Made by a program: the position numbers and the translations under genes
Notes under the pieces: generated by a model
What the model was told of the DNA's origin: nothing
Seen by the model: the letters and a program-made list of their open reading frames with translations, nothing else
The model's database searches: none
DNA from: a virus
Taxonomy: Duplodnaviria; Heunggongvirae; Uroviricota; Caudoviricetes
DNA length: 37,784 nt
Virus record (IMG/VR): IMGVR_UViG_2529292883_000004
Location: 1 to 37,784 of that record
Direction: 5' to 3' (one strand)
Shown: positions 1 to 33,266 of the stretch, in pieces
How positions within the stretch are numbered: the first letter of the stretch is position 1
Layout: every line of letters begins with the position of its first letter

Positions 1-561
1 ATGCCCACTCAAATTTCTGTCGACACTCTTCCTGCAATCACCCACAACCAGGTCCCCGTTATTACAACTGAACTTCTGGCGCAGTTATACGGAACAAAAA
101 TCAAAAACATTTCTGATAACTTTCTGAACAACACGACGCGATTCGTGGTAGGAAAGCATTACTTTAAAATTGAAAAAAACGAATTACGCGAGTTTAAGAA
201 CAGACCCGAAACAATCGGGTTAGTTGGTAAAAATGCCCGTTCCCTTATCCTCTGGACAGAACGTGGCGCAGCCCGCCATGCCAAAATGCTCGAAACCGAT
301 CAGGCATGGGAAGTGTTCGAAAAACTGGAAGACTGTTATTTCAGCCAAAAACAACCACCAGCAACACAAAACTCACCCACCCCAAATGATGGATGCGCAT
401 TACTGATCCACTTTGATAAACACGGTCAGGTAGAGTTCACAGAAAAAGTCCCCGCCGATGCGATGGTATGCACTCTGGAACGGTTTAAATTTTATCTGGA
501 GCAACACGGCTGGCTCGTTGCCCGTAAAGAACAACTGGTGGAAAGGCTGATGCAGCTTTAG
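1..561 (+). CDS. ORF6N-domain protein (antirepressor-like), paralog of 32425..32988
   Basis: 186-aa ORF with ATG at position 1. The C-terminal half is nearly identical to the minus-strand ORF at 32425..32988; the N-terminal motif (ITHNQVPVITTELLAQLYG...RFVVGKHYFKI) is recalled as ORF6N/Bro-N-like. Family assignment is from memory. Confidence 0.55.
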   Translation: MPTQISVDTLPAITHNQVPVITTELLAQLYGTKIKNISDNFLNNTTRFVVGKHYFKIEKNELREFKNRPETIGLVGKNARSLILWTERGAARHAKMLETDQAWEVFEKLEDCYFSQKQPPATQNSPTPNDGCALLIHFDKHGQVEFTEKVPADAMVCTLERFKFYLEQHGWLVARKEQLVERLMQL

Positions 562-746
562 CAGATATAACAAGTGTTTTTTCTCGTATGCACGCGCACA
601 TATGAATTATTGTGGGGCGCATGGGGGAGCTGAAAAGCTCGTCGGTCGGTTTCCCGGTAGTTCCAACCCTGTGCGTCTCTCCACCCGATGATTGGAACCT
701 GACGGTGGTGATAGTTTAAGTTTAGAAACCACTAGAGGACGTCATT

Positions 747-960
747 ATGACAACTCAAATCTCTGTTGAAACCATATCCCCGCTCATCCATAACCAGATT
801 CCTGTTATCACCACCGAACTTTTGGATCAGCTTTAGGTGCCAAGATCAACAACATCAAAGTCAATTACACCCGTAACTCTGAGCGGTTTGTTTGTGGGAG
901 GCACTACTTCAAATTAGAGGGAAATGATTTGCGAGAATTTAAGAACAAACTGCGACAAAA
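747..960 (+). pseudogene. Remnant of a third ORF6N-family copy (N-terminal fragment, frameshifted)
   Basis: ATG at 747 encodes MTTQISVETISPLIHNQIPVITTELLDQL then a stop; similarity resumes in another frame (RFVCGRHYFKLEGNDLREFKN) and then decays. The upstream RBS context resembles that of the 32988 copy. Confidence 0.6.
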
Positions 961-1179: not shown

Positions 1180-1967
1180 ATGAATTTTACGTTTACTGAC
1201 TCTGGATACACTGAAACAAATAAAAACAATCCCCCTATCATATTCGTTCATGGATTTTTCATGAATAATGAAATGTTCAAATACCAGTTTGACGAACTAA
1301 AAGAAAAACATAGAGTTGTTTGCATTAATGTTCGGGGTTTCGATGCCACCTCCGAAAAAACTGAGCCATTCTCGCTCTATGACATCGTTGATGACATTGT
1401 AAACGTCGCAGACTCACTACAACTGGATAAGTTTATTTTAGGGGGATGTCGATGGGGGGGTATATATCATTACGATTTGCCCTGTCACATCCAGAGCGTT
1501 TGTCAGGACTAATCCTTATGGCAACTCAGGTCGAGCAGGACCCGCCAGAAATTGCATCCAGTTATATGGAACTATGTAATGGATGGCATAACTCACTCAT
1601 AAAAGAAGAGATAATATCCTCATTATTACCCGTTTTCTTTGGAAAGAATATCTCTGAAGCAGAGATATGGAGACAAGTATGGCTACGTCATAAACCTGAA
1701 AACATCAAACCAGCTATGAATGCAATGCTGGAGCGAGACGATATTTCAGATAAAGTTCATACGATCAAAGCGCCCACACTGATTCTTCATGGATCCGTCG
1801 ATACAGGAATACCACCGGAGAAAGCTCTTGAAATGCACAAAATGATCCCGCACTCTGAGCTTGCGATTATACCTGACGCCAATCATGCATTGAATGTCAC
1901 TCATGCAAAAGAAGTAAATACCATAATAAAAAAATGGTTACAAAAACACACTGAGAGTCAAAGTTAA
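1180..1967 (+). pseudogene. Alpha/beta-hydrolase fold gene, frameshifted at a G-run
   Basis: Two overlapping ORFs (1180..1512 and 1446..1967) read as one hydrolase when joined: HGFFMNNEMF near the N-terminus and a nucleophile elbow GG-MSMGG (GxSxG) that straddles the frame break. The break sits at the G5 run 1441..1445, just 5' of ATG 1446. The region is visibly AT-rich. Confidence 0.6.
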
Positions 1968-3595: not shown

Positions 3596-6500
3596 TTAAA
3601 CCCAGACTGGATAACGCTCAGACAAGATGCTGAAATCGCTCAGGGATACGCAGTTATAAAACGCATCCGCGTAACTCGTCACGCCAGGCAACTTCTCAAT
3701 GAGCGCACATCCGCTTCCCTGCAATGACCGGCAGTTGTAAAAACAACGGTACACACTGGTTATTTGCGGGTACTCTTCCGCCGGGAGAATGTCATTCACA
3801 TCACTCTCCAGCCCTGTGCAACCGTAAAAGGTGCCCTCAAACGTCGTCGCACTGACGCACCCCGCAAACAAGCCGTCGCCCACAGTGGTCAGCCCCGTAC
3901 AACCGTTAAAGGTCTCTCTGAATGTTGTGACGCTGGCGAGTCCTGCAAACAGTCCGTCTGGTATCGTCATCAGCCCCGTGCAACCATCAAAGGTCTGATA
4001 GAACGATGTCACTCCGGTACAGTTTTCAAACAGCCCGGCAGGCAGCACCGCCAGCCCCGTACAGCCGTAAAAAGTCTGACTGAACGTGGTCACAGCAGTG
4101 TTGTTGTCAAACAACCCTTCCGGCAGTGTCTTCAGACCTGTACAGCCCCGGAACGTCCGGTAAAACGACGTCACACGGTTACAGTTATCAAACAATCCTG
4201 CAGGTAACATCGTCAGCCCCGTACAGCCGAAAAACGTATCCTGGAAAGACCCTGCGCTGACACAACGGTCAAATACCGCCTCAGGCACCGTCGTCAGGGC
4301 GGCACACCGGTAAAATGTCCGGTAGAAGGTTGTCACGCCGTGGCTGCTGTCAAACAGCCCTGCAGGTATTGCTGTCAGCTTCGTGCAGCCACTGAAAGTC
4401 TGATAGAACGACGTCACACCTGTACATCCGTCAAATACACTGTCTCCCAGCGTTGTCAGCTTCGTGCAGTCGTAAAATGTGCCTTCGAACGTCGATGCAC
4501 TGCTGCAGCCTGCAAACGCCCTTTCACCCACCGTTACCAGTTCCGTGCAGCCATAAAACGTCCGGAAGAAGGTCGTCACACGACTACAGTTTTCAAACAG
4601 CCCGGCAGGCAGCGCCTTCAGTCTCACACAGTCGCCAAAGGCATAACTGAACGTCGTCACAGAGACGCAGTTGTCAAACAGCCCTGCCGGTATCGCTGTC
4701 AGAGCCGTACAGCCATAAAAAGCACTACTGAACGTGGTCACGGCAGTGCAGCTGTCAAACATCCCTTCCGGCAATGCCGTCAGTCCCCTGCAGTTATAAA
4801 AAGCACTACTGAACGTCGTCACAGCAGTACAACCTGCAAACACTCCCTCTCCTATGGATGTCAGCCCCGTACAGCCGTAAAACGCCCGGTAGAACGTCGT
4901 AACACTGGTACATCCGGCAAACACGCCGTCTCCCACCGTTGTCAGCCCGGCACAACCATAAAAGGTGTCTTCAAACGTTGTGGCACTGACACAACCGGCA
5001 AACACATTGTCGCCCAGCGTTCTCAGCCCGGAACAACCGTAAAAGGTCCGCCTGAAGGTTGTCACACTTACACAGTCTGCAAACAATCCTGACGGTATCG
5101 CGGTCAGGCCCGTGCATTCGTAAAACGCCTCAAAGAAAGTGGTGACACTGGCGCTGTCAGCGAACAACCCTGCCGGTATCGTTGTCAGCCCCCGGCATCC
5201 CGAAAACACCCCCTCAAACGTCGTGGCACCGGTACAGTCTGCAAATAATCTGGCCGGTACCTCCGACAACCCGGTACATTCGCCAAAAGTCTTATAGAAA
5301 GACTTTGCTCCGGTACAACCGGAAAACAACTCTGCAGGAACTTCCGACAGACGGGTACAACGGTAAAATGTCGTATAGAACGTCGTGGCTCCGGTACAAT
5401 CTGCAAACAATTCCGGGGGGACCATTGCCAGTCCTGTACACCCCAAAAACGACCGGTAAAACGATCTGACACCCGAACAACCAGCAAACACGTCAGCCGG
5501 TATCGTGACCAGTCCGGTGCAACCTTCAAATAAGCTTGCGAATGTTGTGGTACCTGTACAACCAGCAAATACTCTGTCACCCACTGTTGTCAGTGCTCTG
5601 CACCCGTAAAACGCGCTGTCAAACGTCGTGACACTGGTGAGTTTTTCAAATAACCCTGCCGGTATCGTTACCAGCCCCGAGCATCCCGAAAACCCCCCCT
5701 CAAACGTCGCAACCTCTGTGCAGTTTGCGAACAATTTTGCCGGTATCGCTGTCAGGGCCGCGCAGCCATAAAACGTCCGGTTGAATGTCGTCACCCCGGT
5801 ACAACTGTCAAACAACCCTTCCGGTATTGCTGTCAGAGCCGTGCAGCCATAAAAGGCATTACTGAACGTGGTCACGGCAGTGCAGCTGTCAAACATCCCT
5901 TCCGGCAATGCCGTCAGTCCCCTGCAGTTATAAAAAGCCTGGAGGAATGTCGTCACCCCGGTGCAGTCTGCAAATATCCCCTGACCTAATGATGTCAGCG
6001 CCTGGCAGCCATAAAAGGCCTGCAAAAACGTTGTGGCACTGGCACATCCGGCAAACACGCTGTTACCCACCGTGCTCAGTTCCCTGCAGTTATAAAAGAC
6101 CCTGTAAAATGTTGTCGCACTGGTGCACCCGGCAAACACATGGTCCCCCACGGCGCTCAGTCCGGTACAACCATAAAAGGTATCCTCAAACGTCGTGGCA
6201 CCGGTGCACCCGGCAAACACGCTCTCACCCACCGCTCTCAGCCCGGTACAGCCGTAAAACGCCTGACGAAAAGTCGTTACGCCTGTGCAGCCGGCAAACG
6301 CGCTGTCACCGACTGCAGTGAGTCCCGTACATTCGTAAAATGCCTGATAGAACGTCGTGGCGCTGGCGCACTCAGCAAACAGCCCCGGAGGTATCGCAGT
6401 CAGTCCTTTACACCGGTAAAATGCACTGTCGAATGCCGTAGCGTTTTTGCAAAAACGGAATGCGCCGCTGTCAATACTCACCAGACTGGGGGTATTACTC

Positions 6501-7939
6501 GCAAGGTAGCTACAGGATTTTTGTCCCGCCGGAAGTTGACGTAGTCTGACCAGGTCGTTGTAAGCCGTGCTGCTGTACCCGTACACCCTGAACCTGACAC
6601 TCCCCGCCGTTCTCACCCTGATTGTCCGGAGCTCCCCGTCTGCCAGTGAGTCGGGTAACAGGATATTCGCCCAGCCCCCGCTGGTTGTCGTTTCAAGCTG
6701 GTCCGCAGCAACATATCCGTCGCCGAAGCTGACACGACAGTTCACCACATCAGCAACACTGACCAGCGCTTTTGACGATGAAGCACAGACCGAATCAAAA
6801 ACCGCCGGCACGTAACAGCTGACCTGTAATGTTGCCGTGTGTCCGCCGTCATTTGTCGTCACCGTCACCACCGCATCACCTTCGCTCACCCCGCACACGG
6901 TCAGTGAACTGTCGCTGTTGACCACCACCGACACCACGCTTTCATCGCTGACCGTCACAGTCCAGCTCCGGTCTTCAGCATTCTCCGGCCAGACATTCAC
7001 CGCAACCGCGACATGCTCATCATTATCAAGCTCCAGCTCAGTGACCGACAGGTTCACACCGCGCACACTCACGATTTTCCGCAGATTTATCACCTCACTG
7101 CGTACCGGTACTGTCACGTCATCCGGCATATCAACGGCAGCCTCTGCATACGCCGAATACCAGCCGTTCGCAAAATCATCATCCTCCATTTCATACGACC
7201 AGTGCCCTTCACTGTCCGTTGTCACTGTCGCCACATACCGCTGTCCCGACGCGGATTTGATGACAACATTCACCGTCCCCCCCGACACCACCACCCCCTC
7301 ATCTGCCGTGAGCGCACCGGAAAGAACGTGTGTGATGTTGTCCCACGCAATGCTCAGGGCGGCGCTGTACGATGACTGCCACTCAAACGTCACCAGCGTA
7401 TGCGCCGGGGCATAACGACGAAACAGGCACTCCAGGTACGCCCGTGAGGTGGTCACCTCATCCCCCGGCGGGGCCACCACCACGGTCCAGTTAAACCGGT
7501 TGTCGTCACTCAGCAGATGCCCGCTCCACGAAAATCCGCACAGTGGTGTGCGGTACTCACGGATAGTGATGCTGTACCCCATCGTCGCCGCAAGCTCCGT
7601 GAAATACGCCACACTCTGCCCGCCTGTCGACAGCAGTTTCGCCAGAATGAATTTTCTGGCCTGCGCCGGGTCTGTGGTGGATGCCTGCGTCCCGCATTCA
7701 TCATTCAGCCCCAGCGAGGCATACCACTCATCAGTGAGCGCATCCGCCGTTTCCGGGAAGGCGCCCGTTATCAGTGCGCACGCATCAGCGTCACTCTGCC
7801 GGTACGCCTGTGCCAGTCCGCGTATCAGCCTGTGCTGCACACTGTCAGGCAGACGGCTCCAGGCAATCCCTGACGGCAGAAGGTTCAGCATCGCGCGCGT
7901 GTAGTCATCATGTGAAAAACGACTCATCTTTTTCCTCAT
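3596..7939 (-). CDS. Giant baseplate-associated protein: Mu gp48/DUF2313-like N-terminal domain + Ig-like domain + ~30 x 27-aa Cys-containing LRR-like repeats
   Basis: 1447-aa ORF whose start overlaps the stop of the J-like gene (7936..7939). The N-terminal ~190 aa resemble Mu gp48-type baseplate proteins as recalled. An Ig-like stretch follows (VTVSDESVVSVVVNSDSSLTVCGVSEGDAVVTVTTNDGGHTATLQVSCY). Then a long array of 27-aa units with consensus about xVFAGCTGxTTFxxxFYGCTGLTxxGD, flavoured like BspA-type LRRs. Confidence 0.85.
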   Translation of the reverse strand: MRKKMSRFSHDDYTRAMLNLLPSGIAWSRLPDSVQHRLIRGLAQAYRQSDADACALITGAFPETADALTDEWYASLGLNDECGTQASTTDPAQARKFILAKLLSTGGQSVAYFTELAATMGYSITIREYRTPLCGFSWSGHLLSDDNRFNWTVVVAPPGDEVTTSRAYLECLFRRYAPAHTLVTFEWQSSYSAALSIAWDNITHVLSGALTADEGVVVSGGTVNVVIKSASGQRYVATVTTDSEGHWSYEMEDDDFANGWYSAYAEAAVDMPDDVTVPVRSEVINLRKIVSVRGVNLSVTELELDNDEHVAVAVNVWPENAEDRSWTVTVSDESVVSVVVNSDSSLTVCGVSEGDAVVTVTTNDGGHTATLQVSCYVPAVFDSVCASSSKALVSVADVVNCRVSFGDGYVAADQLETTTSGGWANILLPDSLADGELRTIRVRTAGSVRFRVYGYSSTAYNDLVRLRQLPAGQKSCSYLASNTPSLVSIDSGAFRFCKNATAFDSAFYRCKGLTAIPPGLFAECASATTFYQAFYECTGLTAVGDSAFAGCTGVTTFRQAFYGCTGLRAVGESVFAGCTGATTFEDTFYGCTGLSAVGDHVFAGCTSATTFYRVFYNCRELSTVGNSVFAGCASATTFLQAFYGCQALTSLGQGIFADCTGVTTFLQAFYNCRGLTALPEGMFDSCTAVTTFSNAFYGCTALTAIPEGLFDSCTGVTTFNRTFYGCAALTAIPAKLFANCTEVATFEGGFSGCSGLVTIPAGLFEKLTSVTTFDSAFYGCRALTTVGDRVFAGCTGTTTFASLFEGCTGLVTIPADVFAGCSGVRSFYRSFLGCTGLAMVPPELFADCTGATTFYTTFYRCTRLSEVPAELFSGCTGAKSFYKTFGECTGLSEVPARLFADCTGATTFEGVFSGCRGLTTIPAGLFADSASVTTFFEAFYECTGLTAIPSGLFADCVSVTTFRRTFYGCSGLRTLGDNVFAGCVSATTFEDTFYGCAGLTTVGDGVFAGCTSVTTFYRAFYGCTGLTSIGEGVFAGCTAVTTFSSAFYNCRGLTALPEGMFDSCTAVTTFSSAFYGCTALTAIPAGLFDNCVSVTTFSYAFGDCVRLKALPAGLFENCSRVTTFFRTFYGCTELVTVGERAFAGCSSASTFEGTFYDCTKLTTLGDSVFDGCTGVTSFYQTFSGCTKLTAIPAGLFDSSHGVTTFYRTFYRCAALTTVPEAVFDRCVSAGSFQDTFFGCTGLTMLPAGLFDNCNRVTSFYRTFRGCTGLKTLPEGLFDNNTAVTTFSQTFYGCTGLAVLPAGLFENCTGVTSFYQTFDGCTGLMTIPDGLFAGLASVTTFRETFNGCTGLTTVGDGLFAGCVSATTFEGTFYGCTGLESDVNDILPAEEYPQITSVYRCFYNCRSLQGSGCALIEKLPGVTSYADAFYNCVSLSDFSILSERYPVWV
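3784..6440. repeat. Imperfect tandem array of 81-bp coding repeats (about 30 units) inside the giant gene
   Basis: An 81-nt periodicity is visible in the DNA (recurring gtacagccgtaaaa-like cores) and as a 27-aa periodicity in the protein. Boundaries are approximate. Confidence 0.8.
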
Positions 7940-21146: not shown

Positions 21147-22783
21147 GAAACATCAGGCTCCTTCGGCTCTGCCGGGTCACTGCCCGTCGGTGTGGAGGCA
21201 AACTGCTCTGCCTGAAACCAGGAAGGCGGTGTCAGGCCTCTTTCCTTAAAGGCCCGCTCTTCTCGCGCCCGCTGATCGAGAATGTCCTCGAAATCTTCCC
21301 CCACGTTCTCAGCCACTTCGATTTCCAGCGTGGACATGCCGGCCTCCATCGCCAGAATCGCCCCTTTTTTCTCCGCGACCGGATCCACCCAGCCACGCCC
21401 CGGTCCCATCCAGTGGGCACGGGTGTAAGCGGCCCGCGCCGCCAGAAAATCCGGTGCGCCTGCAGGCAGCGGCAAATCCTCTTCTTCGTGCAGCTCTTCC
21501 AGAAACGCCGTCAGCACCGGCTGGGCAAAGCCAACCGCAAACTCATCACGACGGCGGGTCAGTGTTTTCCACGCCTCAAGGAGTGCCGCACGGGCAGAGC
21601 TGTAGTTAACGTCCGACCAGTCCTGTGTCACCTGCTGGGTGGACAGACCCAGTGCAGCGGCAATATTCCTGAGCACCGTGCCCTCGAACTCCTTAAAGTT
21701 ACTGACCGGGCGGGCGGCGCTCACGGCTTTTGGCTCTTCGCCGGGGAACGTGATGGGAATACGCACGCCCGACATCGAAATCCGGTTAGTATCGTGATAC
21801 TTCATGCGCGCATCCTGGTAGCCATTAATCACCTCCGCGTCACTCATCAGATCTTCTGTCAGTTTCGGGTCATAGGGCGACGTGATGAAAAAACCGAACA
21901 TGGCATTGATGATGGCGGCTTCCAGCTCCACCTGGTCGTACTTGATAAGCATTTTCAGACGCTGAACCACGGGATTGAGAATACCGACACCACGATGCTG
22001 GCCCGCACGGTCATGATCAAAGTCATGCACCACCACCGGCCTTCCCCACGACGTTTCACGCGGCACGCGTTCCCAGTGCATCGTGTCACTGCCGCTCCAC
22101 CAGTCCCCCATGTGTGCGGACCGGATGTGATAGGCTACCGGCACCCCGTCCGCGTCAATTTCCACACCGCCACGAATATGCGGCATGTCAAACGCATCGT
22201 TCGGGTTACTCAGCCGGTCGGGGTCAATCACCTGTACCACCGTACCGTAACGCCCGCGACCGGGGGCTATTCTGTCCGGTCGCCAGTGGATGACCGCCAG
22301 CGCATCGCCGTCGATCATCTTGTGGCGGAATGCCAGCCGGAAAAGCTGCGGCAGGGTCTGTCTGCGTTCAAGGTCGCAGTAACACCCGGCATCACTGGCC
22401 CAGTTGCGCCAGTGTGCCTCCACACAGCGCCCGTACTCATCCGCCCAGTCTGCATCAAATGCCCGGTTGCCGGTCATCTCTGCCAGCATCCGGTAGTCAG
22501 GCTTCATCCTCGGGCGAAAAACCACCCCCATGGCATTGTCCAGCAGACGGGTGATACTGCCATTCGCCCAGCCGTCATTGCGGACAAGGTCGCGCATTCT
22601 GGCAACCATACGGTTACGCCAGATATTCACTTCATTGTCCGGTGACCACAGTACCGGGTTCCAGCCCGCCACCGAACCGTGCGAGAAACCGGCAGAGTCG
22701 TAGGGGATCCGCCCGCTGTCATTCAGTGCGCGTTTTTTTTCCGTCTGTTGCGGAAAAGGTCTGCCATTTTTATCGACTATCAT
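21143..22783 (-). CDS. Portal protein (lambda gpB-like)
   Basis: 546 aa, positioned between the W-like gene and the protease gene. Confidence 0.8.
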   Translation of the reverse strand: MIVDKNGRPFPQQTEKKRALNDSGRIPYDSAGFSHGSVAGWNPVLWSPDNEVNIWRNRMVARMRDLVRNDGWANGSITRLLDNAMGVVFRPRMKPDYRMLAEMTGNRAFDADWADEYGRCVEAHWRNWASDAGCYCDLERRQTLPQLFRLAFRHKMIDGDALAVIHWRPDRIAPGRGRYGTVVQVIDPDRLSNPNDAFDMPHIRGGVEIDADGVPVAYHIRSAHMGDWWSGSDTMHWERVPRETSWGRPVVVHDFDHDRAGQHRGVGILNPVVQRLKMLIKYDQVELEAAIINAMFGFFITSPYDPKLTEDLMSDAEVINGYQDARMKYHDTNRISMSGVRIPITFPGEEPKAVSAARPVSNFKEFEGTVLRNIAAALGLSTQQVTQDWSDVNYSSARAALLEAWKTLTRRRDEFAVGFAQPVLTAFLEELHEEEDLPLPAGAPDFLAARAAYTRAHWMGPGRGWVDPVAEKKGAILAMEAGMSTLEIEVAENVGEDFEDILDQRAREERAFKERGLTPPSWFQAEQFASTPTGSDPAEPKEPDVS

Positions 22784-22791
22784 CGCTCACC

Positions 22792-23013
22792 TCAGTAACG
22801 CACGCTCAGAGACCTTCTCGTCCTTATCCCCAGCGCCCGCTGGAGCGTCGCGATCAGCGCCAGCAAATCCGCACTGCTGGCCTGTGAATAAGTCACGGTG
22901 CGCGTGCCGTCCCCCTGTGCATAGGAGAAACTCACGCCACGCCGCCCTGAAAGCAGCTCAATATAGGCCGCCTGAGCTTCATTCAGTGCCGCCTTCAGTT
23001 GTTCTTTTGACAT
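22792..23013 (-). CDS. Head-tail joining protein W-like
   Basis: Starts at the internal ATG (MSKEQLKAALNEAQAAYIELLSG...); about 73 aa, resembling lambda gpW in size and helix pattern, directly after the large terminase gene. Confidence 0.6.
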   Translation of the reverse strand: MSKEQLKAALNEAQAAYIELLSGRRGVSFSYAQGDGTRTVTYSQASSADLLALIATLQRALGIRTRRSLSVRY

Positions 23014-23039
23014 TCCGGCAAACACGCCGGGGGTATTCA

Positions 23040-25019
23040 TCATCGTCTCACTCCTGCAAGCCTCATATGCAGCGGTATTTTCTTACGGGGTGTCTCCGGT
23101 GCTTTTGCGCCCGGCATACTTAAACTGATTTTTTCTTCCGGCTGCGCGGGAGGCGGCTCCATGAATGACAGATCCTGCGCCGCCCGTTCAGCCAGACTGT
23201 TCAGTTTCAGACCGTGATGCAGCAGCCCCTTCAGGGCCGCGTAACCGTACACCATGCAGTCCAGCGCCTCATTCGCCCGCCCGGCAGACAACTCCCAGAC
23301 ACGGTACACCTGCCCGCCGTTCTCCTTACGCACCAGACGCTCAGAGAGCAGCTGACTGAAATAATGCAAATCCAGAAACGACGGAAAATGGATACAGCCT
23401 GCGGCAGGCGCGCCTGCCGGATCCGGCTCAATATGGAGCCGGTGCCTGATGTCGTCCTTCGCGGAGTTCACCCCCAGAATGACGGGGCGGAAGGATTTCC
23501 GGTTGCGGGACGAAACGACACGCGTCGGCCAGACAGGGTTACGTTTACCGCCCGTCGCCGACTCACCTTTTGTCGCCCAGATACGACGCCCGATACGCGC
23601 CTTCGAGAACTCATACACTTTGTTGGTGTGATGACCGCCCGAGTCATGGCAGACCGCCGAGAGCGTCAGCCCGAAACCGTCAGCCCGCCGCCAGACCTGC
23701 TTCAGATACGCATCAAGGCGCTCCCACGGCTCTTCTGTTTCAAGGTCACCAAAAATCATGTCATGCGCAATCACCCAGCATTCTTCGTTCATGCCCCAGC
23801 CGAGAACGGTGATTTCGAAGCGGTCATCCTGCGTATCCACCCCGGCGGTGAGCAGGAGCACGCCATACGGCACCTCCGCCCCCCAGACCTCAACGCGGGC
23901 GATCAGCCGCTGCTCACTCATCGCAAACTCGCCTGCATCCTCGTAAGGCTCGCCCAGCGTGGTATTGATGAATGTCTGGCGCATCAGCGGATCGTCCTTC
24001 ACCCTCAGCCATTCGGCGACCAGATTCGGCCAGGAGGCATTTGAGTGCGGGCTGTAGCCCGTCCAGATATGAAAACCGGCATGCCCCCTGAATGGTGCAC
24101 CGGCGCGCCATTCGCCTTTTTCCAGCATCCCGGGCAGTTCACTGTGCACAATCACACAGCCGTGGTGGCGGCACAGGTAGTAAGCGGTCTCCGGCAGCCC
24201 GTTATCTTCGCTGTCCTTTTCCCACTTGATGCCGTAAGGGGTGCTTTTGCTGCCCCACTCCAGCACCTGATATTCACCGCAGTGAGGACAGGGCACGAAG
24301 TAGCGGCGCTGATCGCTTTCCAGCCAGGCTTTTTCAATACGGCTCACGCCTTTCACGGTTGGCGTTGAGCCGAGAACAATCTTGCGGTTCCAGAAGGTTT
24401 CGGAACGTTTTGTTCCCAGCGCAATCTGATCCCCTTCGGACCCTGCGCCCCCTGCCGGATACCCGTCCACCTCATCAAAAAGGATGATGCGGCATGTGAT
24501 ACGGCGAAAACCGCCGGGGGAGTTGGCCCCGACCAGCGTGAGGTTTGCGCCGTTGGAAAAGGTTTTGCGAAGAATGGTCTGGTTGCTGTTTTTTGCCTTC
24601 GGGTCGCCGCTGATGGCTGCCAGCACCGGCGTGTCGCGCAGCATCGGGGCAATTTCGGTTTTACTGTAGTCTTCGGCATCCTCCACCCTCGGCTGAACCA
24701 CCAGGATGGGGGACGGATCATGTGCCAGGTAATAGCCCACCACATGATCAAGAATTTTCGTGTATCCCACACGGGCTGATTTCATCACAGACACATACGT
24801 GACTGACGGGTCGGTGATGGCATCCATTATGCCGTCCTGATAGGGATAGGAGCGGAATTTCCCCGTCTGGGCACTGGTCTCACGGGACAGTACAGCGAAG
24901 GTGTTGGCCCACTGGCTTAAGGATAATGGCGGCGGAGGCGCAAGATAACGCGGACACGAAAGCAGCGCATCCTCAAACTGTATCTCCGTGGGTTTCGCGC
25001 CTGTCAAATGCAAGTTCAT
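23040..25019 (-). CDS. Terminase large subunit (lambda gpA-like)
   Basis: 659 aa; motifs VMKSARVGYTK, ILFDEVDGYP, CPHCGEYQVLEWG, FHIWTGYSP and NEALDC parallel lambda A as recalled. Confidence 0.9.
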   Translation of the reverse strand: MNLHLTGAKPTEIQFEDALLSCPRYLAPPPPLSLSQWANTFAVLSRETSAQTGKFRSYPYQDGIMDAITDPSVTYVSVMKSARVGYTKILDHVVGYYLAHDPSPILVVQPRVEDAEDYSKTEIAPMLRDTPVLAAISGDPKAKNSNQTILRKTFSNGANLTLVGANSPGGFRRITCRIILFDEVDGYPAGGAGSEGDQIALGTKRSETFWNRKIVLGSTPTVKGVSRIEKAWLESDQRRYFVPCPHCGEYQVLEWGSKSTPYGIKWEKDSEDNGLPETAYYLCRHHGCVIVHSELPGMLEKGEWRAGAPFRGHAGFHIWTGYSPHSNASWPNLVAEWLRVKDDPLMRQTFINTTLGEPYEDAGEFAMSEQRLIARVEVWGAEVPYGVLLLTAGVDTQDDRFEITVLGWGMNEECWVIAHDMIFGDLETEEPWERLDAYLKQVWRRADGFGLTLSAVCHDSGGHHTNKVYEFSKARIGRRIWATKGESATGGKRNPVWPTRVVSSRNRKSFRPVILGVNSAKDDIRHRLHIEPDPAGAPAAGCIHFPSFLDLHYFSQLLSERLVRKENGGQVYRVWELSAGRANEALDCMVYGYAALKGLLHHGLKLNSLAERAAQDLSFMEPPPAQPEEKISLSMPGAKAPETPRKKIPLHMRLAGVRR

Positions 25020-25590
25020 TCAGCGCCTCGTAAATCAGTTCCTGCAATGCCGCCGTGAATCCCTGATCGTCTGTCATCCCCGCCAGCGCCCGCAGACGGG
25101 GACCATGTTCCGGCGCAAGGGCAACAAGGCGCGTCCTCACCCGGGTATACTCCGCCCCGACCCGCTCAATGATGGGTTTCCAGGGAAGCAGTGTCCCTTT
25201 CTTTTCGTCATACTCGAGTTTTGCCAGCAGCGCGAAGTAGTTCTCTTTCATGGTTCTGGCTTCATCGAGCGTCATCATAGCTCCGTGGCTGGCAATGAAC
25301 TGTTCGACCCGTGCTTCTTTCGATACATCAGAGGAGTCATCGTACAGGGCAATGCTGTTACCTTCGTTGTTACCCGGAGTGTTACCTTCGGGTGTTACCC
25401 TGTTACCGAAAGTGTTACCTTTTTGCTCATTTTTTATTCGGGTAACAGTTTTCCGGTAACGCCGGATCCGCTCGTTTGAGGCATCAACATCGATGTCCTC
25501 ACCGTCCAGAACCAGCCAGCCACGGGCCTTCCACGCCGTTACCGTCTTGCGACTGACACCGTGAAGTTTTGCGAATTCCGCCTGATTCAT
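24973..25590 (-). CDS. Terminase small subunit (Nu1-like)
   Basis: 205 aa with an N-terminal HTH (MNQAEFAKLHGVSRKTVTAWKARGWLVL), just upstream of the large subunit gene. Contains a low-complexity GN-rich linker encoded by GGTAAC repeats. Confidence 0.8.
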   Translation of the reverse strand: MNQAEFAKLHGVSRKTVTAWKARGWLVLDGEDIDVDASNERIRRYRKTVTRIKNEQKGNTFGNRVTPEGNTPGNNEGNSIALYDDSSDVSKEARVEQFIASHGAMMTLDEARTMKENYFALLAKLEYDEKKGTLLPWKPIIERVGAEYTRVRTRLVALAPEHGPRLRALAGMTDDQGFTAALQELIYEALNELAFDRRETHGDTV

Positions 25591-25625
25591 CTGTTACCCT
25601 CTGTTACCTGTTACCCAAATTTCAA
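25350..25625. repeat. Array of at least 9 GGTAAC(A) hexamer repeats inside and just upstream of the small terminase gene (candidate terminase-binding, cosB-like sites)
   Basis: Plus strand shows gttacc repeatedly at 25365..25480, and three more copies immediately 5' of the ATG (minus strand gggtaacaggtaacagagggtaacag-ATG). Confidence 0.55.
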
Positions 25626-25821
25626 AATTTTATAGCTAGCGAAACACCGCGCTCGCGCAATGCCCGTGCAATAACTCGCTCAGGAAGGACCCGTTACCCT
25701 GCCAGGCGACAGTGTCGATATCCGTCTGCGGTTTCAAAAATCTCAAGATAACGATAAATCACAATGCCATCACAAAACCCTGTGATGATTTTTTCACGAC
25801 TGATGGTTTTCATATATTTCC

Positions 25822-26025
25822 TCACGTTTCATCAGACAATAACGCAACCAGATGGCAGGTCGCCTCCTTATTGAGAGGGAACACGAGCGTTTCACCTCCT
25901 GTGCGGTGGATATACAATGTCCTGCCCCCGGATTCATCTCTTTCAACATCAAGATATGAAACAACGGGGCGGCATATCGCTATGCCGCGTTCGCTAATGT
26001 GAGTTTTGTTTATGAGGTTATTCAT
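25822..26025 (-). CDS. Hypothetical small protein
   Basis: 67-aa ORF with no recognisable motif; orientation matches the late operon. Coding status uncertain. Confidence 0.25.
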   Translation of the reverse strand: MNNLINKTHISERGIAICRPVVSYLDVERDESGGRTLYIHRTGGETLVFPLNKEATCHLVALLSDET

Positions 26026-26110
26026 GGGAATACTCTCCGAATTAAATACACTTCTGGAAAAGATACCACTCTGAAAAAAACTTCAGTCAGTCCCACAGGA
26101 AATAGAAGAT

Positions 26111-26302
26111 TTGAAGCGAAGAGTTGCTGAACTGGAATCGAACCATTGTTCTGCAACCAGCGCACAATTCTGTCCCAAATGCCAAAGAGCGTCTTTTCAG
26201 CTCGACAGAACTGAAAATGATCCAACATTTGGAGTATTAGGCCTTCAGCGGGACATTTATGTTTGCAGAGAGTGTGGTTACTCTCGCCATGAATCACGTT
26301 AA
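26111..26302 (+). CDS. Hypothetical small zinc-ribbon protein (CxxC...CxxC), opposite strand to the late operon
   Basis: 63-codon ORF with a TTG start and paired CxxC motifs (CPKC ... CREC). It overlaps a minus-strand ORF of odd composition. Only one of the two is likely real. Confidence 0.3.
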   Translation: MKRRVAELESNHCSATSAQFCPKCQRASFQLDRTENDPTFGVLGLQRDIYVCRECGYSRHESR

Positions 26303-26350
26303 TAAAAACGCTGCTGGCACGTTCTTTCTTCAGGGCAGCAATGCCCTGCA

Positions 26351-27016
26351 TCACTTCGCCGTCTTTAAAGCCTGTTCAAGCACCACACTCAGCTCCGTCT
26401 TCATGAGACGCGATGCCATGTTGTGCGCCAGCGCCTGATAACCCAGTACCGGCGTGACCGGCAGTGCATCACCAAAACGTATCAACAGCTTTGGTGAGCG
26501 GCTTTTTTTGCGGGGAGCGCGTGTGCCATTGGGGGAGCGTTTTCTCCGCTTCCTGGTTTTTGCCACTTTTTTCGCTTTCTTACGCTGCCAGACGCCACCA
26601 ACATCCTCACCATAGTTGTTCGTCACCTTACCGATGAACACATCCGGTCTGGCCTTCAGCTGTTGCAGTTTTGCCTTTGGCAGGTTGCCGTATTTGTTCA
26701 GCCGGATATTTTTCGGGTTCAGTACAGCTTTCTGCCCCTCACCGAGATAATGCAGCCCGCCCACCTCAAAGGGTTCAAGGTAAGGCACGGCGGTATCCAT
26801 GATGAACACCCGACCGGTCAGATTGTCCCTTGTTGCCCCTTTTGAGCGCACCGAGTTCACGGTGAACGGCGTCGGGTTATCCAGCTTCCGGCGAAGGTTT
26901 TCTTTCTCTGCCGCTTCAATTTTTCTCACCGTGGCAGTGATGGCGCGCGCAGTGGCAAAACGCACCTGCTTCTGCATTCCCAGAAGCTGTCTGTGAAGGT
27001 CGTTAAGGTCAGCCAT
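26351..27016 (-). CDS. Hypothetical protein with a strongly basic K/R-rich C-terminal segment
   Basis: Start chosen at the ATG at 27016 (MADLNDLHRQ...) with an AGGTGG RBS. Contains KKAKKVAKTRKRRKRSPNGTRAPRKKSRSPK. No family recognised. Confidence 0.55.
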   Translation of the reverse strand: MADLNDLHRQLLGMQKQVRFATARAITATVRKIEAAEKENLRRKLDNPTPFTVNSVRSKGATRDNLTGRVFIMDTAVPYLEPFEVGGLHYLGEGQKAVLNPKNIRLNKYGNLPKAKLQQLKARPDVFIGKVTNNYGEDVGGVWQRKKAKKVAKTRKRRKRSPNGTRAPRKKSRSPKLLIRFGDALPVTPVLGYQALAHNMASRLMKTELSVVLEQALKTAK

Positions 27017-27083
27017 ATTCCACCTTCTCATGCTGCATTATCGCAGCCCCTCACTGAAGGGCTGCCCGGATTAACCAGCAGAA

Positions 27084-27615
27084 TCACACCATTCCGGGCA
27101 AATACATTTGCACTTCATTTGCTGCTCTCTCACGAGCAACATGAAGCAATCTTTTTCGCCCACCAACGCCCCACTTAGCCATTTGGCTTGCGCACTGGCT
27201 TATCGCTTTGGTTTCAGTATTGATGATGTGATCGATTCTATTCAGACGGGACATTGCGCCAACGCCGAGACGGACAACCGTTTTGAAAACTTCATAAACT
27301 TCGATTTCAAATTCCGGCTTAATCCATGCTGCATATCTGATTGCCAAAAGTTCAACACCCCACACACCTGGTTCTGCACCACCTTTGATTATTTTAAGTG
27401 GTTGAATTTTTTTCCAAAGTGCTTTTTTGCACTTTGGCCTCCAGTGCTTTTATGAAGCGTTTTATCTGCGCGCTACGCAAAAACTGGCTTGGGCGCTGTT
27501 GCTCTGTAGCCTCTCCATTTGCAACTGCTGCTGCATGGAGATCGTTTAAGTTGTAGCGTCCGTCCTCATCAATACGAACGGACACACCATTGACAATAAC
27601 TGTTTGGTACTTCAT
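27084..27615 (-). pseudogene. KilA-N domain gene split by a frameshift at a T7/A7 homopolymer
   Basis: ORF 27394..27615 (MKYQTVIVNGVSVRIDEDGRYNLNDLHAAA...) and ORF 27084..27365 (...GVELLAIRYAAWIKPEFEIEVYEV...) together match a KilA-N domain but are in different frames. The junction is at the run of seven T at plus 27407..27413. Confidence 0.6.
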
Positions 27616-27762
27616 CAGTGATCACCTTTTAGTGATGAACCTTGTCACACAGGATTCCGGCCCACAGAAAGGCACCGATCACCAAACCGGCATCCTCAAG
27701 GGTCATCCTGAAAGGTTCTGTGTTCATAAGTCGCGCGTGTGAAGCGCGTTTACTGCGGACAT

Positions 27763-27786
27763 AAAAAAGCCCCGCATCGCGAGGCT
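27763..27786 (-). terminator. Rho-independent terminator after the lysis cassette
   Basis: Minus strand hairpin gcctcgc-gat-gcggggc (one mismatch) followed by tttttt, about 30 nt after the Rz stop. Confidence 0.55.
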
Positions 27787-27817
27787 CATTAAATGGACTT
27801 TGTGATTTGCAAAAAAA

Positions 27818-28255
27818 TTATTTCAGGCACTGAGTTCTGATGTACTCCTGCAGGTAGTTAACCTGCGCGGTTATCCTGTCGATTCCACTTCGGAGACGGT
27901 AATAATTGAGTTCAGCATCTGCTGTAAGTCCTGGGCTTTCTCCATCGCCCATGCTGCTGGCTCCGGTCGTTGACTTTGCACAGGTGGCGGCGACTTGCAG
28001 GCGCTTACGACCAGCAGAAACATCAGCACGGAGGCTTTCGATAGTCGCGTTAGCATTAGCAAGCTCCTTTGTGTATCTGGCGTCAAGTTCTGCTAAATCA
28101 CGTTGACGCTTCTGCATGTCAGCGATTGTGGATGCGGCCTTATCGCGCTGCTCTTTGTAGGTAATGGCATTATTACGGTAATGATTAACAGCCAATGACA
28201 GGCAGACAATGATGCAGAAAACCAGAGGGGAGATAATCGCAGTAACTCTGCTCAT
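27818..28255 (-). CDS. Rz-like i-spanin
   Basis: 145 aa with an N-terminal transmembrane segment ([16 protein letters not shown]) then a coiled-coil-like periplasmic domain; contains an embedded +1-frame lipoprotein ORF. Confidence 0.8.
27871..28056 (-). CDS. Rz1-like o-spanin lipoprotein, embedded in Rz
   Basis: Embedded ORF with signal peptide plus lipobox ([20 protein letters not shown]) followed by a proline-rich segment ([13 protein letters not shown]). Start chosen at the internal ATG. Confidence 0.7.
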
Positions 28256-28270
28256 ATTCAGCCCCTGCTG

Positions 28271-28654
28271 TCAGCGCTTCAGCTGGAAATGTGGTCCGTC
28301 TTTCAGTGTTTTCCAGTCCCCGCCCCATTCGATGGCGATTCCCAGCTCTGCACCAGCCAGCTTAAATGCCTGTGCGATTTTCTCGTACAGAGGCCAGTCC
28401 CATGACACCTGGCTGCCAACGTAGGCCACAACATCCACTGCATCACCGGTCAGGTGACGGCTGTTCATGGTCTGACTTTTTCCTTCCGCGACCAGTTGTT
28501 TCTGGCGCTCTTTCGTGCGCAGACCTTCCGTAATACCAAAATCAACCTCCGTCAGTTCAAGGGCACGGCGAACTACAGCAACCAGCTGTGGTTTAACACC
28601 CTCCAGATTTTTCTCGCTCCGGCGGCTGAATCTGAATTTACCCGACATATTCAC
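28271..28654 (-). CDS. Endolysin, peptidase M15 family (L-alanyl-D-glutamate peptidase-like)
   Basis: 127 aa with an HxxxxxxD...DxxH pattern (SRHLTGDAVDV...WGGDWKTLKDGPHFQL) typical of M15/VanY-like phage endolysins. Confidence 0.75.
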   Translation of the reverse strand: MNMSGKFRFSRRSEKNLEGVKPQLVAVVRRALELTEVDFGITEGLRTKERQKQLVAEGKSQTMNSRHLTGDAVDVVAYVGSQVSWDWPLYEKIAQAFKLAGAELGIAIEWGGDWKTLKDGPHFQLKR

Positions 28655-28926
28655 CTCAACAATGGAAAGATTCTTGTGACGTTCCCGCGTGCGCGTATCA
28701 CCAGCACGCAGAACAGCAGATTAAAAAACACCTCCAGCCAGCCCGTTGCTAACGAGCGACCACACAGATAGCTGAGGGGGGCAAAGGCATACAGCAGCAT
28801 CAGCAGCCAGGCCAGCCATGACATCAGCGGTTTGTGCCTGGAGTCACGACGACGATAAAAAAAGAGCGTCAGCACGATAACCGTGCATAACGCCACATTC
28901 AGCAATCCGGGAAGGTTACTTAACAT
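28651..28926 (-). CDS. Holin/antiholin-like small membrane protein
   Basis: 91 aa with 2-3 hydrophobic helices, between the first holin-like gene and the endolysin. Confidence 0.55.
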   Translation of the reverse strand: MLSNLPGLLNVALCTVIVLTLFFYRRRDSRHKPLMSWLAWLLMLLYAFAPLSYLCGRSLATGWLEVFFNLLFCVLVIRARGNVTRIFPLLR

Positions 28927-29308
28927 TGCCGCCTCCTCCGCCCCGCAGGCGCGAGAACAGACCAGACACCAGTGATGCGATATCCTGCTGGTGGATGAAT
29001 GACATAATCTTTACCGACACCAGCGATACCAGCACCGCACACAATGCATCTGCAGACGTGCCGTCATAACCAGTTTTTGATGCCACCCAGGCTGAAAGCA
29101 AACGCGCACCCAGTACGCCGACGATAAATGACACAAGAAAATGTGCCGCCACCCGCCATGCTGAAAGCGCCTGCGGTATCGTTGCAACAAACAACGCCCC
29201 CGCAAATGCGCCAAACACAATCCCGAAATCCGTTCCGGTAAACAGCCCGAAAACAGTCGCCCCACCGAGCGCAGCAGCTGTGCCGGAACCGGATAAGGGT
29301 TCAGACAT
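28916..29308 (-). CDS. Holin-like membrane protein (first gene of the lysis cassette)
   Basis: Start chosen at the ATG at 29308 (MSEPLSGSG...) with an AGGAG RBS 7 nt upstream. Gly/Ala-rich transmembrane helices. Confidence 0.6.
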   Translation of the reverse strand: MSEPLSGSGTAAALGGATVFGLFTGTDFGIVFGAFAGALFVATIPQALSAWRVAAHFLVSFIVGVLGARLLSAWVASKTGYDGTSADALCAVLVSLVSVKIMSFIHQQDIASLVSGLFSRLRGGGGGNVK

Positions 29309-29348
29309 ACTTTTTCTCCTGTAAATTAAAAAAGGCCACCAGCGGACC

Positions 29349-29395
29349 AAAAAAAACACCACACCAAAGACATCCGCAGATGCCTTTGTGTGGTG
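29349..29395 (-). terminator. Strong rho-independent terminator immediately upstream of the lysis cassette
   Basis: Minus strand caccacacaaag-(loop)-ctttggtgtggtg with a 12-bp stem followed by T8. Confidence 0.65.
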
Positions 29396-29459
29396 TTATT
29401 CAGATTTGATATGTATGGGACGTGGAGCGAATACAAAAAAGCCCGTCAGAACAGGCCTC

Positions 29460-29488
29460 AAAAAAAAGCCAGCTCTGGGGAGGCTGGC
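29460..29488 (-). terminator. Rho-independent terminator
   Basis: Minus strand gccagc-ctccccagag-ctggc followed by T8. Confidence 0.55.
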
Positions 29489-30111
29489 AGGAATGAAAAA
29501 TGACTCTCGAGATTATTCATCACAAAACGGATTACTTTGCGCTGAACAGAATGCTCCTTCATCGTATATTTCTCAACTGGAGAGACTCATTTTCAGATTT
29601 TGTTATCTGTCATATTGACAGTCCCCACTTCTCCGGGGTAGTGAAGTAAGTAGCGTTTGCTTCCTGTAAATGCCCGAGGGTTATCCATGATCTCTTGTAT
29701 AAGGCATTCCTCAGTGGACTAATTTCGGAGTTATCATCCCGTTCAATTTCATCCAGGATCCCCTACTAAATAAGTTCACCATTCTTCAGGTGGCAGTTTC
29801 TTTCAGCCAACCGTGCACTCAACAGCACATTCTTGTCGGACTCAGAATAACTCCTGCAAATGCAACAATGATGGCCGTCGCCCCAATAACCTTGTGCTGC
29901 CCGCATCCGTAAAAAGCGAAGGCCCCAAATTACCAGAATAAAACCGAGCAGATATCCGACCTTCGTTACCGCATGGACTTCATTGTCTCATACACCAGGA
30001 TCAGCGAATTGCAAAGGATGAAGCACGCCCCATGAAGATTCTCCCAAAAACTATAATTGTAAAAACCAAAGTAGTGGAAGCGAGCACTTGTAACCCCGAA
30101 CTTTGAATAAA

Positions 30112-30131
30112 AAAAACCGCCTGGAGCGGCG
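30112..30131 (-). terminator. Rho-independent terminator downstream of the tRNA pair
   Basis: Minus strand accgcc-gctcca-ggcggt followed by T8. Confidence 0.55.
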
Positions 30132-30487
30132 GTTAATGGCATATAAAAACGCATGATTTAATTGTATTCAGAAGTGTCGGGTGCCACCCGAAGCATCCAG
30201 CCCCACAAGGATACTGTGGTTTCCCGCTAAACCGACTCTTTAAACCACCCTCGCACTGAGGAACACCTCTGTAGTGTTTTTACAACACCGGGATAGTGCA
30301 TCATCAGCCCTGCCAGGAAATACTAAATCTCCACCGATAATGCACCATTCCATTGTTGTAAAAAATCAGCACTGAGGCTATAACCGACCTCAAACCATAG
30401 CCTGAGGACCAAAGATGTATTAAAACAACCTGCCCCCACGTAAAAAAACACGCCAGTGCTGTATAATTCGTGTTGCCAGAATAATGA

Positions 30488-30562
<75 letters not shown>

Positions 30563-30565
30563 ATA

Positions 30566-30641
<76 letters not shown>

Positions 30642-30806
30642 ATTGGTTCCTCAGGTGTGGATGAGATGCCCGGATACATAAATTACCCTCCCTTGGAACC
30701 GACGAAGAATAATAATGAATTCCGCTCCTGTTTCAATACAAACAATGTCAGGTATTTAAAACATAATTATACAATATTATAAAAATTAAAAAGTTCGCAA
30801 AAAAAG

Positions 30807-31853: not shown

Positions 31854-32003
31854 AGATCAATAAGCACTTCTCTGATAGGCTCATACCGCTTTTGCGCAAA
31901 GCAGATGGGCCTGAGGTTTGCTTGTGACCCCAACGCATGAGCAGATGGCTGGCAGGTGCCGCTAACACCCACCAGCCGCCCATTACCACAAATAAAAAAG
32001 CCT

Positions 32004-32201
32004 TCACTGCGGAAGGCGTCTGTAACAACCGAACTGATAATCTGCCAGGCCCGCCATAACAAGCTGGGTCAGTATTAACTGGCAGCGCTCGCGTGAAAGG
32101 TAAGTATTCTGCGCAATCTCCCCGACGGTCGCCGGTTCGGTGACGCTTAATTCATTAAACACCACTCTGGCGGTTTCGGTCATATCCTGCTGTTTTAGCA
32201 T
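32004..32201 (-). CDS. Small winged-helix-like DNA-binding protein (hypothetical)
   Basis: Start chosen at the ATG at 32201 (MLKQQDMTETARVVFNELS...) with an AAGGGA RBS; about 65 aa. The VGEIAQNTYLSRERCQLILTQLVMAGL segment looks like an HTH. Confidence 0.45.
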   Translation of the reverse strand: MLKQQDMTETARVVFNELSVTEPATVGEIAQNTYLSRERCQLILTQLVMAGLADYQFGCYRRLPQ

Positions 32202-32988: not shown

Positions 32989-33146
32989 AATGACACCCTC
33001 TGATGGTTTCTTAATAACTCACCACCGACGACGCCAATCGTCTGGTGGTGAACTGTGCAGGGTTGGCGTAACCGGGAAACCGACCGGCGCGGATCTCTCC
33101 GCCCCCACACAGCCCACCATAATTCAGATGTGCGCGTGCATACGAC

Positions 33147-33262: not shown

Positions 33263-33266
33263 GCGC

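Follow-up and report, generated by a model that had tools for sequence, protein, structure and literature searches.

Three ORF6N genes of one prophage lie behind C4 antisense RNA genes, probably as copies of a mobile antirepressor cassette

Introduction

Why does a single prophage carry three related ORF6N genes, two of which face each other across its late genes? The question is raised by the virus record IMGVR_UViG_2529292883_000004 (Caudoviricetes), of which positions 1 to 37,784 were analysed as one stretch of 37,784 nucleotides (nt), termed the window. A preliminary description of this DNA, made from the letters and the open reading frames (ORFs), had proposed that two of the genes form an inverted, mosaic pair of paralogues and that the third is a decayed remnant. 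We conclude that the three genes are copies of one mobile phage module, a C4/IsrK-controlled ORF6N antirepressor cassette of the P1 immI and Gifsy-1 isrK-anrP type, a reading to which we assign a probability of about 75%. The observed feature is real, and it is accounted for by a known system plus ordinary phage mosaicism.

Results and discussion

Three ORF6N copies with a common leader

The three copies, labelled A, B and C, are the following.

1..561, plus strand: copy A, an intact ORF6N antirepressor-like gene of 186 amino acids (ORF list; Pfam ORF6N, 73.5 bits)
32425..32988, minus strand: copy B, an intact ORF6N antirepressor-like gene of 187 amino acids and the first gene past the Q-proximal leader (ORF list; Pfam ORF6N, 71 bits)
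747..955, plus strand: copy C, the 5' remnant of an ORF6N ant gene (alignments; a frameshifted ORF6N pseudogene is annotated in relatives)

That there are three copies, as had been claimed, is borne out by the ORFs, by the matches of A and B to Pfam ORF6N (PF10543; both with E ~1e-20, cut-off 27.8 bits) and by the aligned remnant. The latter begins with an ATG at 747, and a 1-nt deletion relative to intact homologues leads to a TAG at 834-836. Past this stop codon the frame continues in +2, and likeness to intact ant genes stops at about position 955, before a hydrolase cargo gene. The 29-amino-acid fragment of copy C is too short for Pfam scoring; the frame-corrected sequence aligns with intact ORF6N Ant proteins.

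A repeat finder recovers A and B as inverted repeats at 232-560 versus 32426-32754 (329 nt, 91% identity) and, at their 5' ends, at 1-95 versus 32894-32988 (79%). It also pairs the remnant and its leader with B (721-835 versus 32900-33014, 88%), as well as 577-695 with 33034-33152 (76%). Aligned globally as DNA, A and B match in 23-30 of 30 columns at either end and in 13-20, with many gaps, in an unalignable block at about nt 96-231, so that the blocks of the pair map to nt 1-95, about 96-231 and 232-560. As proteins, A and B agree in 25 of their first 30 residues, in about 31% of residues ~31-77 and in 101 of 109 residues of the C-terminal part. Thus, the similar start of about 30 residues, the divergent middle and the near-identical C-terminal half that had been described are all present. 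The same holds for the ribosome-binding-site context said to be common to B and the remnant, which lies in the shared leader and is the C4 target site, and for the position of the inverted pair, which brackets the tail, head, lysis, tRNA and methylase genes.

The RNA genes ahead of the ORF6N copies

RNA genes were called by an Rfam scan at gathering thresholds. All three ORF6N copies sit behind a C4 gene, with A and B heading complete cassettes. These RNA genes had been overlooked in the preliminary description; annotation of genes only misses the RNA switch. In the case of A, the promoter and RNA part was invisible because the window begins exactly at the ATG of A, which cuts off its upstream regulatory region. 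The parts found in the window are listed here.

33267..33662, minus strand: antiterminator Q gene, directly upstream of cassette B (ORF list; PF06530 in the gene table of the source genome)
33233..33262, minus strand: sigma-70 promoter of cassette B, TTGACC and TATATT with an 18-nt spacer, 5 nt past the Q stop codon
33239..33187, minus strand: c4-a1b1 motif, which carries the a1/b1 sites and overlaps IsrK (Rfam RF03163, 50.5 bits)
33226..33150, minus strand: IsrK small RNA of cassette B (Rfam RF01394, 75.5 bits; an intrinsic terminator was detected independently)
33041..33124, minus strand: C4 antisense RNA of cassette B (Rfam RF01695, 66.7 bits; canonical fold of -44.5 kcal/mol)
32989..33040, minus strand: leader of B, with a2 GATTGGCGT at 33039..33031, b2 GAAACC at 33010..33005 and the Shine-Dalgarno sequence at 33000..32996
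577..604, plus strand: start of cassette C; from the T-run of the IsrK terminator, just past the stop codon of A, the sequence is again homologous to the B-type cassette (alignments)
605..688, plus strand: C4 antisense RNA of the remnant cassette (Rfam RF01695, 53.8 bits; gathering threshold 45)
689..746, plus strand: leader of remnant C, with a2 GATTGGAAC at 690-698, b2 GAAACC at 725-730 and the Shine-Dalgarno sequence at 734-739

The sigma-70 promoter of cassette B is a strong one and is conserved in eight other cassettes. Moreover, a 57-codon ORF (33158..32985, minus strand) ends in the TGA of an ATGA that overlaps the start codon of B. The source genome, OU349842.1, matches window positions 37784..22425 at 100% (locus L023), and its order into A is trp-yciGFE, a leftover 3' fragment of ompW, a TTGACA/TATATT promoter, IsrK (72.7 bits), C4 (78.9 bits) and the ATG of A (IsrK and C4 at locus L032, 12799-12988). 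The genome of E24377A has the same arrangement, with isrK and C4 upstream of A. IsrK is therefore present ahead of A and B; it is absent from C, in which the alignments reveal neither a promoter nor an IsrK body. A location directly downstream of Q is true for B (Q stop at 33267, promoter from 33262), and A and C adjoin the ompW junction instead.

The C4 RNAs of A (-49 kcal/mol) and B have canonical folds, and that of the remnant reaches -32.3 kcal/mol. Compared to the intact copy of STEC1589, the remnant C4 has three substitutions, two of which break outer-stem pairs. Together with the poorer fold and the frameshift they indicate that decay has reached the RNA part of the remnant as well as the protein part.

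If the cassettes work like the homologous systems of P1 immI and Gifsy-1, most transcripts from the cassette promoter would end at the IsrK terminator. Read-through RNA would yield C4, and pairing of its a' and b' loops with a2 and b2 near the ribosome-binding site would keep the antirepressor from being translated. IsrK, with its putative decoy sites a1 and b1, could relieve this block, and the antirepressor protein would then inactivate a phage repressor. Of the three units, B is complete and stands right after Q, like the Gifsy-1 locus (antQ-isrK-orf45-anrP). A is likewise complete and lies among cargo, with the tail-fibre genes on one side and the ompW attachment (att) site on the other. 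C, which follows in tandem, comprises C4, a leader and the 5' end of ant and is decaying.

Recognition sites of C4, IsrK and leaders covary

We extracted nine cassettes and compared eight of them (B, C, A, Gifsy-1, phi24B, STEC1589, pPE4 and the P1-like RCS47), since the IsrK and C4 of phi330 are identical to those of B. Cognate pairing was scored by exact-complement counts on the loops only. These counts replaced RNAduplex energies calculated on whole stem-loop segments, in which stems pair spuriously and cognate and non-cognate combinations were not separated.

In all eight cassettes the bulge a' of C4 is perfectly complementary to 7 nt of the leader that follows it, and in 7 of the 7 cassettes that have an IsrK it also perfectly complements the second hairpin loop of that IsrK over 7 nt. 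The loop of hairpin 2, b', is complementary to the same leader over 6-8 nt, at a site that overlaps the Shine-Dalgarno sequence or precedes it by a few bases, and to its own IsrK over 6-8 nt in five of the seven IsrK-bearing cassettes. Among the eight cassettes there are four types of a site (GGCGU, GGAAC, AGCAC and GAGAC) and five types of b site, and the two reassort. B combines GGCGU with GAAACC and A combines GGAAC with GUACGGA; remnant C has the a type of A and the b type of B, which makes its C4 a hybrid. In the crossed combinations, the C4 of A with the leader of B and the reverse, matches extend over only 4-5 and 4 nt, as in non-cognate pairs. Since A and B thus differ in both recognition sequences, we predict that their circuits should not cross-talk. 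The pattern, including compensating specificity variants, is like that in c4 of P1 and P7, for which the a'/b' loop specificity goes back to Citron and Schuster 1990, as summarised in PMC8198154.

Likeness to Gifsy-1, P1 and Stx phages

In the antQ-isrK-orf45-anrP locus of the Salmonella prophage Gifsy-1 (Hershko-Shalev et al. 2016; PMC4825925), part of the transcription that starts at the isrK promoter passes the IsrK terminator and gives a long RNA that is translationally silent. IsrK in trans switches on translation of anrP; AnrP in turn increases antQ operon expression and causes phage induction (PMC4825925). The same study reports an ATGA stop/start overlap and an "orf45" that is conserved in nucleotide but not in protein sequence (PMC4825925). 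Rfam places C4 exactly at this "orf45" (locus L005, 2623-2706). Gifsy-1 is therefore like B in having Q, a promoter, IsrK with its terminator, a conserved orf45/C4 element of ~85 nt, the ATGA overlap and an ORF6N protein of 187 amino acids. Cassette A is 81% identical in DNA sequence to the isrK-anrP locus, and ~85% identical to ant regions of Shiga toxin (Stx) phages. AnrP itself (STM2616, 187 amino acids) is 69% identical to A and 55% to B, and its middle segment is of the same type as in A. However, over its C-terminal 70 residues AnrP has only a distant similarity to A and B (40-41% DNA identity), and the b sequence is AUCACC instead of the GAAACC or GUACGGA found here. Unlike Gifsy-1, moreover, the prophage studied here has three copies, one of them far from Q.

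In P1, C4 blocks translation of ant, and Ant binds the C1 repressor (PMC8198154). Its immI region, like that of P7, shares with our cassettes the Rfam C4 family, the pairing of a'/b' with a2/b2 by the ribosome-binding site and the upstream copies a1/b1. The Ant protein of the P1-like RCS47 has the ORF6N core in common with B (67% identity over 102 amino acids). In contrast to the cassettes of the window, P1 and P7 have icd between c4 and ant, for which the C4-to-ATG distance of only 52-58 nt here leaves no counterpart; RCS47 has the longer spacer of the P1 type. Further differences are the KilAC domain (ANT, PF03374) at the C-terminus of the P1-type protein, which is absent from A and B, and the C1-controlled operon, the place of which is taken here by a promoter after Q or beside att.

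The Stx phages phi24B, Min27, phi330 and STEC1589 have the promoter-IsrK-C4-ORF6N cassette in the nin region, with tandem ant units each of which is preceded by a C4-like RNA. The C4 of STEC1589 is 96% identical to that of remnant C. These phages differ in that their proteins end in P22_AR_C and their cassettes lie upstream of Q. As a separate observation, Rfam sRNA-Xcc1 matches of 68-73 bits (L003, 4958-5048; L004, 4644-4727) occur in Stx phages just ahead of the second antirepressor-like gene (Rha or Ant). They hold the position that C4 has before the first gene of the tandem arrays and may be a second class of C4-like regulator.

Cassette A is tied to the ompW junction

It had been suggested that the left copy belongs to a neighbouring element. 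In PapM-36-2, the same left flank lies inside a complete prophage that is bounded by ompW' and int-xis-ompW. This prophage runs from the leftover 3' fragment of ompW through cassette A, remnant C, the hydrolase and tail-fibre assembly genes and a Mu-like tail to head, lysis, Q, early genes, xis, int and intact ompW. The phage supplies the 3' end of the intact ompW, and this end is 78% identical to the leftover fragment. In the window, no further att copy resembling ompW was found. The left cassette is thus inside an att-bounded ompW prophage, and a second prophage at this flank is not supported.

What does stand is a looser bond between cassette A and the rest of the prophage. A protein identical to A was found in 1,394 blocks of the collection, always beside yciE/ompW' and in front of two unrelated prophage bodies, one with the Mu-like tail and the hydrolase and one of the dinI/Lom/J type. 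In the latter, homology ends inside the second C4 at nt 646 and is followed by sequence resembling the ssrA 3' end and then by dinI. The A cassette thus goes with the ompW junction, and it does not share its history with the late region or with B. In a circular phage genome it would adjoin attP-int, and it can travel with the integration module.

The same data bear on an alternative, in which A, the second C4 and the ant remnant behind it are left over from a different, older element at the ompW site and not from the prophage of B. Besides the identical cassette before unrelated bodies and the break inside C4, the promoter-IsrK-C4-ant-C4-ant architecture speaks for it, as it is that of nin or post-Q regions and not of tail-end cargo. 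Moreover, the closest ompW prophages lack B with its Q/RusA/DUF968 block; their post-Q slot holds a kinase and a phosphatase (E24377A) or a CPBP protease (PapM-36-2) where ORF6N is found here. The complete prophage of PapM-36-2, the lack of a second att copy or integrase in the window and a place next to attP-int in the circular phage genome, from which the cassette can move with the integration module, argue against it. We consider such a relic origin of the A cassette possible but unlikely, with a chance of about one in four. In the phage database, no sequenced virion has the left flank together with the hydrolase, and only the cassette part was matched.

In genomes of the enterohaemorrhagic type that have the same A cassette (L014, 10600-10670), the second C4 breaks off after its 5' half and runs on into a sequence identical to the 3' end of ssrA, the transfer-messenger RNA gene (GGTTCAACTCCCGCCAGCTCCACCA), with dinI behind it. 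This fusion within a C4 gene looks like an att-type junction of a different phage.

Are A and B antirepressors?

By analogy with their homologues, A and B would act as antirepressors: the related proteins of Stx and P1-like phages are annotated as Ant. NCBI lists the B protein under the name "ORF6N domain-containing protein". Several points weigh against the cassette reading. The homologues on which the analogy is built have other C-terminal domains. In Pfam, A, B, AnrP and the alleles of strains C8 and A8 (see below) consist of ORF6N alone, phi24B, phi330 and STEC1589 of ORF6N and P22_AR_C, and RCS47 of ORF6N and ANT/KilAC. Thus, phi24B and RCS47 end in domains that A and B do not have, AnrP is only distantly similar in this part, and the C-terminal domain of A and B gave no Pfam match. 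An AlphaFold2 model built with 46 homologues has a predicted local distance difference test (pLDDT) score of ~80-90 for residues 11-110 and of only 36-57 for residues 116-187. In addition, the IsrK RNAs of B and STEC1589 match b' over only 4 nt, as b1 reads GAGACC versus GAAACC. Finally, since the immunity region has been lost from this prophage, any target repressor must be encoded elsewhere.

The ORF6N proteins could instead be DNA-binding regulators, or toxins, of another kind. ORF6N is related to DNA-binding domains of the KilA-N type, and the C-terminal domain of these proteins is uncharacterised. No structural relative of that domain was found: Foldseek against the PDB gave nothing below E = 0.8, and a profile search of PDB sequences nothing below E = 0.36. 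The only faint structural echo, the APSES DNA-binding domain of Mbp1, stood at rank 32 and was not significant. On the other side, the P1-like Ant has the same ORF6N core, and AnrP, which has the whole ORF6N domain in common with A, raises transcription of the antQ operon and induces Gifsy-1 (PMC4825925). We regard a non-antirepressor function as improbable, by about four to one.

If A and B are antirepressors, a defective prophage with two circuits that do not cross-talk might be an induction hub that acts in trans on the other prophages of the cell, an idea that we offer as speculative and rather improbable. Were it correct, the ORF6N middle would determine the repressor targeted, the RNA loops would determine which cassette responds to which signal, and the hybrid C4 of the remnant, with a like A and b like B, could couple both circuits.

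The mosaic arose by allele exchange among phages

Silent-site divergence (dS) between A and B is 0.95 over codons 1-30, saturated in the middle (90% of silent sites differ, pS 0.90, with a replacement-site divergence, dN, of 0.9) and 0.33 over the core and C-terminus. Unequal constraint on the protein cannot produce a dS that differs by block, and the blocks therefore have different histories. The A/B mosaic is real and, as judged from these alignments, recombinational, which upholds one part of the earlier proposal of recombination between paralogues. The other part, that these two copies were the partners, is not supported. Window A differs by 2 nt from A of E24377A and by 1 nt from A of PapM-36-2, both genomes are without B, and no site is converted towards B, so that an A-B exchange in this genome did not create the pattern.

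For every block of A and of B, other phages contain closer relatives, and these differ from block to block. The promoter, IsrK, C4 and leader of A are 91-95% identical to phage pPE4, its N-terminal and middle blocks 96-98% to the post-Q allele of strain A8, its middle block 96-97% to Gifsy-1 and phi24B, and its C-terminal block 97% to strain C8 and 91% to B. The IsrK and C4 of B are 93-96% identical to those of strain 401651. Strain C8 has the orthologous locus at ompW with flanks that are at least 95% identical, in which a patch from about -60 to +231 is replaced by another allele. In strain A8, the post-Q gene is a hybrid with an A-type 5' half, a B-type 3' end and the downstream genes of B.

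A search of the protein collection gave 4,787 clusters at E <= 1e-10, and 118 full-length proteins were typed, namely 114 of the best 120 matches plus window A, AnrP and the C8 and A8 alleles. In these, residues 30-77 fall into 19 types at 80% identity, and the N-terminus, core and C-terminus have one dominant type each; for several pairs of middle and C-terminal types all four combinations are present. We propose that blocks were exchanged repeatedly among ant alleles of lambdoid, Stx, Gifsy and P1-like phages, with the conserved flanks probably serving as crossover sites. The sequence comparisons thus place the making of the mosaic in allele exchange within the phage gene pool and not between A and B here.

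It is very unlikely that A and B themselves recombined, or converted one another, in this genome and so gave the mosaic. The 329-nt arm with its identical runs of 48, 35 and 35 nt would be enough for RecA-dependent exchange, and dS is lower in the shared 3' block than in the N-terminal one. However, apart from the nearly identical A copies in genomes without B, which leave no genome-specific change towards B, the exact B protein occurs in only 2 contigs compared to the 1,394 blocks with the exact A protein, indicating that the sequence of A predates its meeting with B, and the 3' end of the A8 post-Q allele is closer to B (94%) than that of A is (91%).

No sign of an inversion switch

The suggestion that the inverted pair could mediate inversion of the region between its arms is not supported. 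Two chimeric inversion-junction queries were searched against 5,426 complete Escherichia coli genomes. The junction of att side, A 5', B 3' and methylase side had no contiguous match in them that included the 200 nt on the att side, and its matches were post-Q loci with A-type alleles; the reciprocal junction of Q, B 5', A 3' and C4, ant remnant and hydrolase was covered to 80% or more at no place. The A/B pair is essentially specific to the source strain, with one arrangement on record, and the junction search is weak in that respect. No invertase was called next to either arm, the rest of the window not having been scanned for invertases. Diverged gene copies of 329 nt (91%) without an adjacent invertase and without either inverted junction in these genomes do not make a Gin/Cin/Pin-type invertible segment, which has short inverted crossover sites beside a serine invertase and is seen in both orientations within populations. 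We judge it highly improbable that the pair is a device for inverting the 32-kb late region or inverts it regularly: orientation and position fit it and the longest identical run of 48 nt exceeds the ~25-30 nt minimum of RecA recombination, but the arms differ at 29 of 330 positions, and in cells with active mismatch repair a divergence of 9% is a strong brake on homologous recombination. Rare RecA-dependent inversion may occur, but nothing points to a function for it. We take the inverted orientation to be a by-product of the places in which the two cassettes came to lie.

What the locus adds

Taken alone, the feature is of little weight, as C4/IsrK-controlled antirepressors and mosaic phage genes are both well documented. 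Its value is that one locus shows IsrK, the "orf45" of Gifsy-1 and the C4 of P1 as parts of the same three-site system, in which recognition sequences covary and reassort. Moreover, the ORF6N middle acts as an exchangeable hypervariable cassette, which gives a testable handle on antirepressor specificity in strains with several prophages.

Other features of the window

The window ends at 37395-37784 in a truncated transposase ORF (129 amino acids) of the IS186/IS421 insertion sequence (IS) family. About 110 nt beyond this fragment the source genome continues with chromosomal sequence downstream of prpE, then prpE, prpD and prpC (L023, 1-5204). The prophage is thus without hok, replication, immunity and integrase modules, and it joins trp/yciE to the prp region, which are ~1 Mb apart in K-12. 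No other complete genome in the collection has the junction of prpE, IS fragment and prophage. Between the DUF968/RusA/Q genes and the IS fragment lies a pair that is conserved in strain 401651 and consists of an HTH_3 plus Peptidase_M78 (ImmA/IrrE-type) gene (35459..36580, minus strand) and an unannotated gene for 213 amino acids (36591..37232, minus strand).

At the other end, a frameshift splits the alpha/beta-fold hydrolase gene (1180-1967) into the overlapping ORFs 1180..1512 and 1446..1967; in PapM-36-2 it is intact and 789 nt long. The hydrolase gene is frequent cargo at the tail-fibre end of other prophages; one homologue, with 88% DNA identity, stands there in an unrelated prophage of the avian pathogenic strain APEC O1. 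The gene for a tail protein of 1447 amino acids (3596..7939, minus strand) contains many diverged 81-nt (27-codon) repeats at 3851-6418. In relatives it is annotated as a leucine-rich repeat protein, the copy number varies, and the proteins range from 609 to 1470 amino acids. In the head gene region, 20028-20189 is a tandem 81-nt duplication with 85% identity that is rich in GTC and ATC codons on the minus strand.

ARAGORN places tRNAs only at 30488-30641, where tRNA-Gly(UCC) and tRNA-Thr(UGU) lie between the methyltransferase and lysis genes; a tRNA origin of the conserved non-coding block 577-695 was accordingly rejected. Finally, a small conserved ORF (32004-32237; 65 amino acids in relatives, WP_000917767.1) lies between B and the methyltransferase and is followed by a terminator-like hairpin at 32017..32000. 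It is common to all related prophages examined, whatever the post-Q slot contains.

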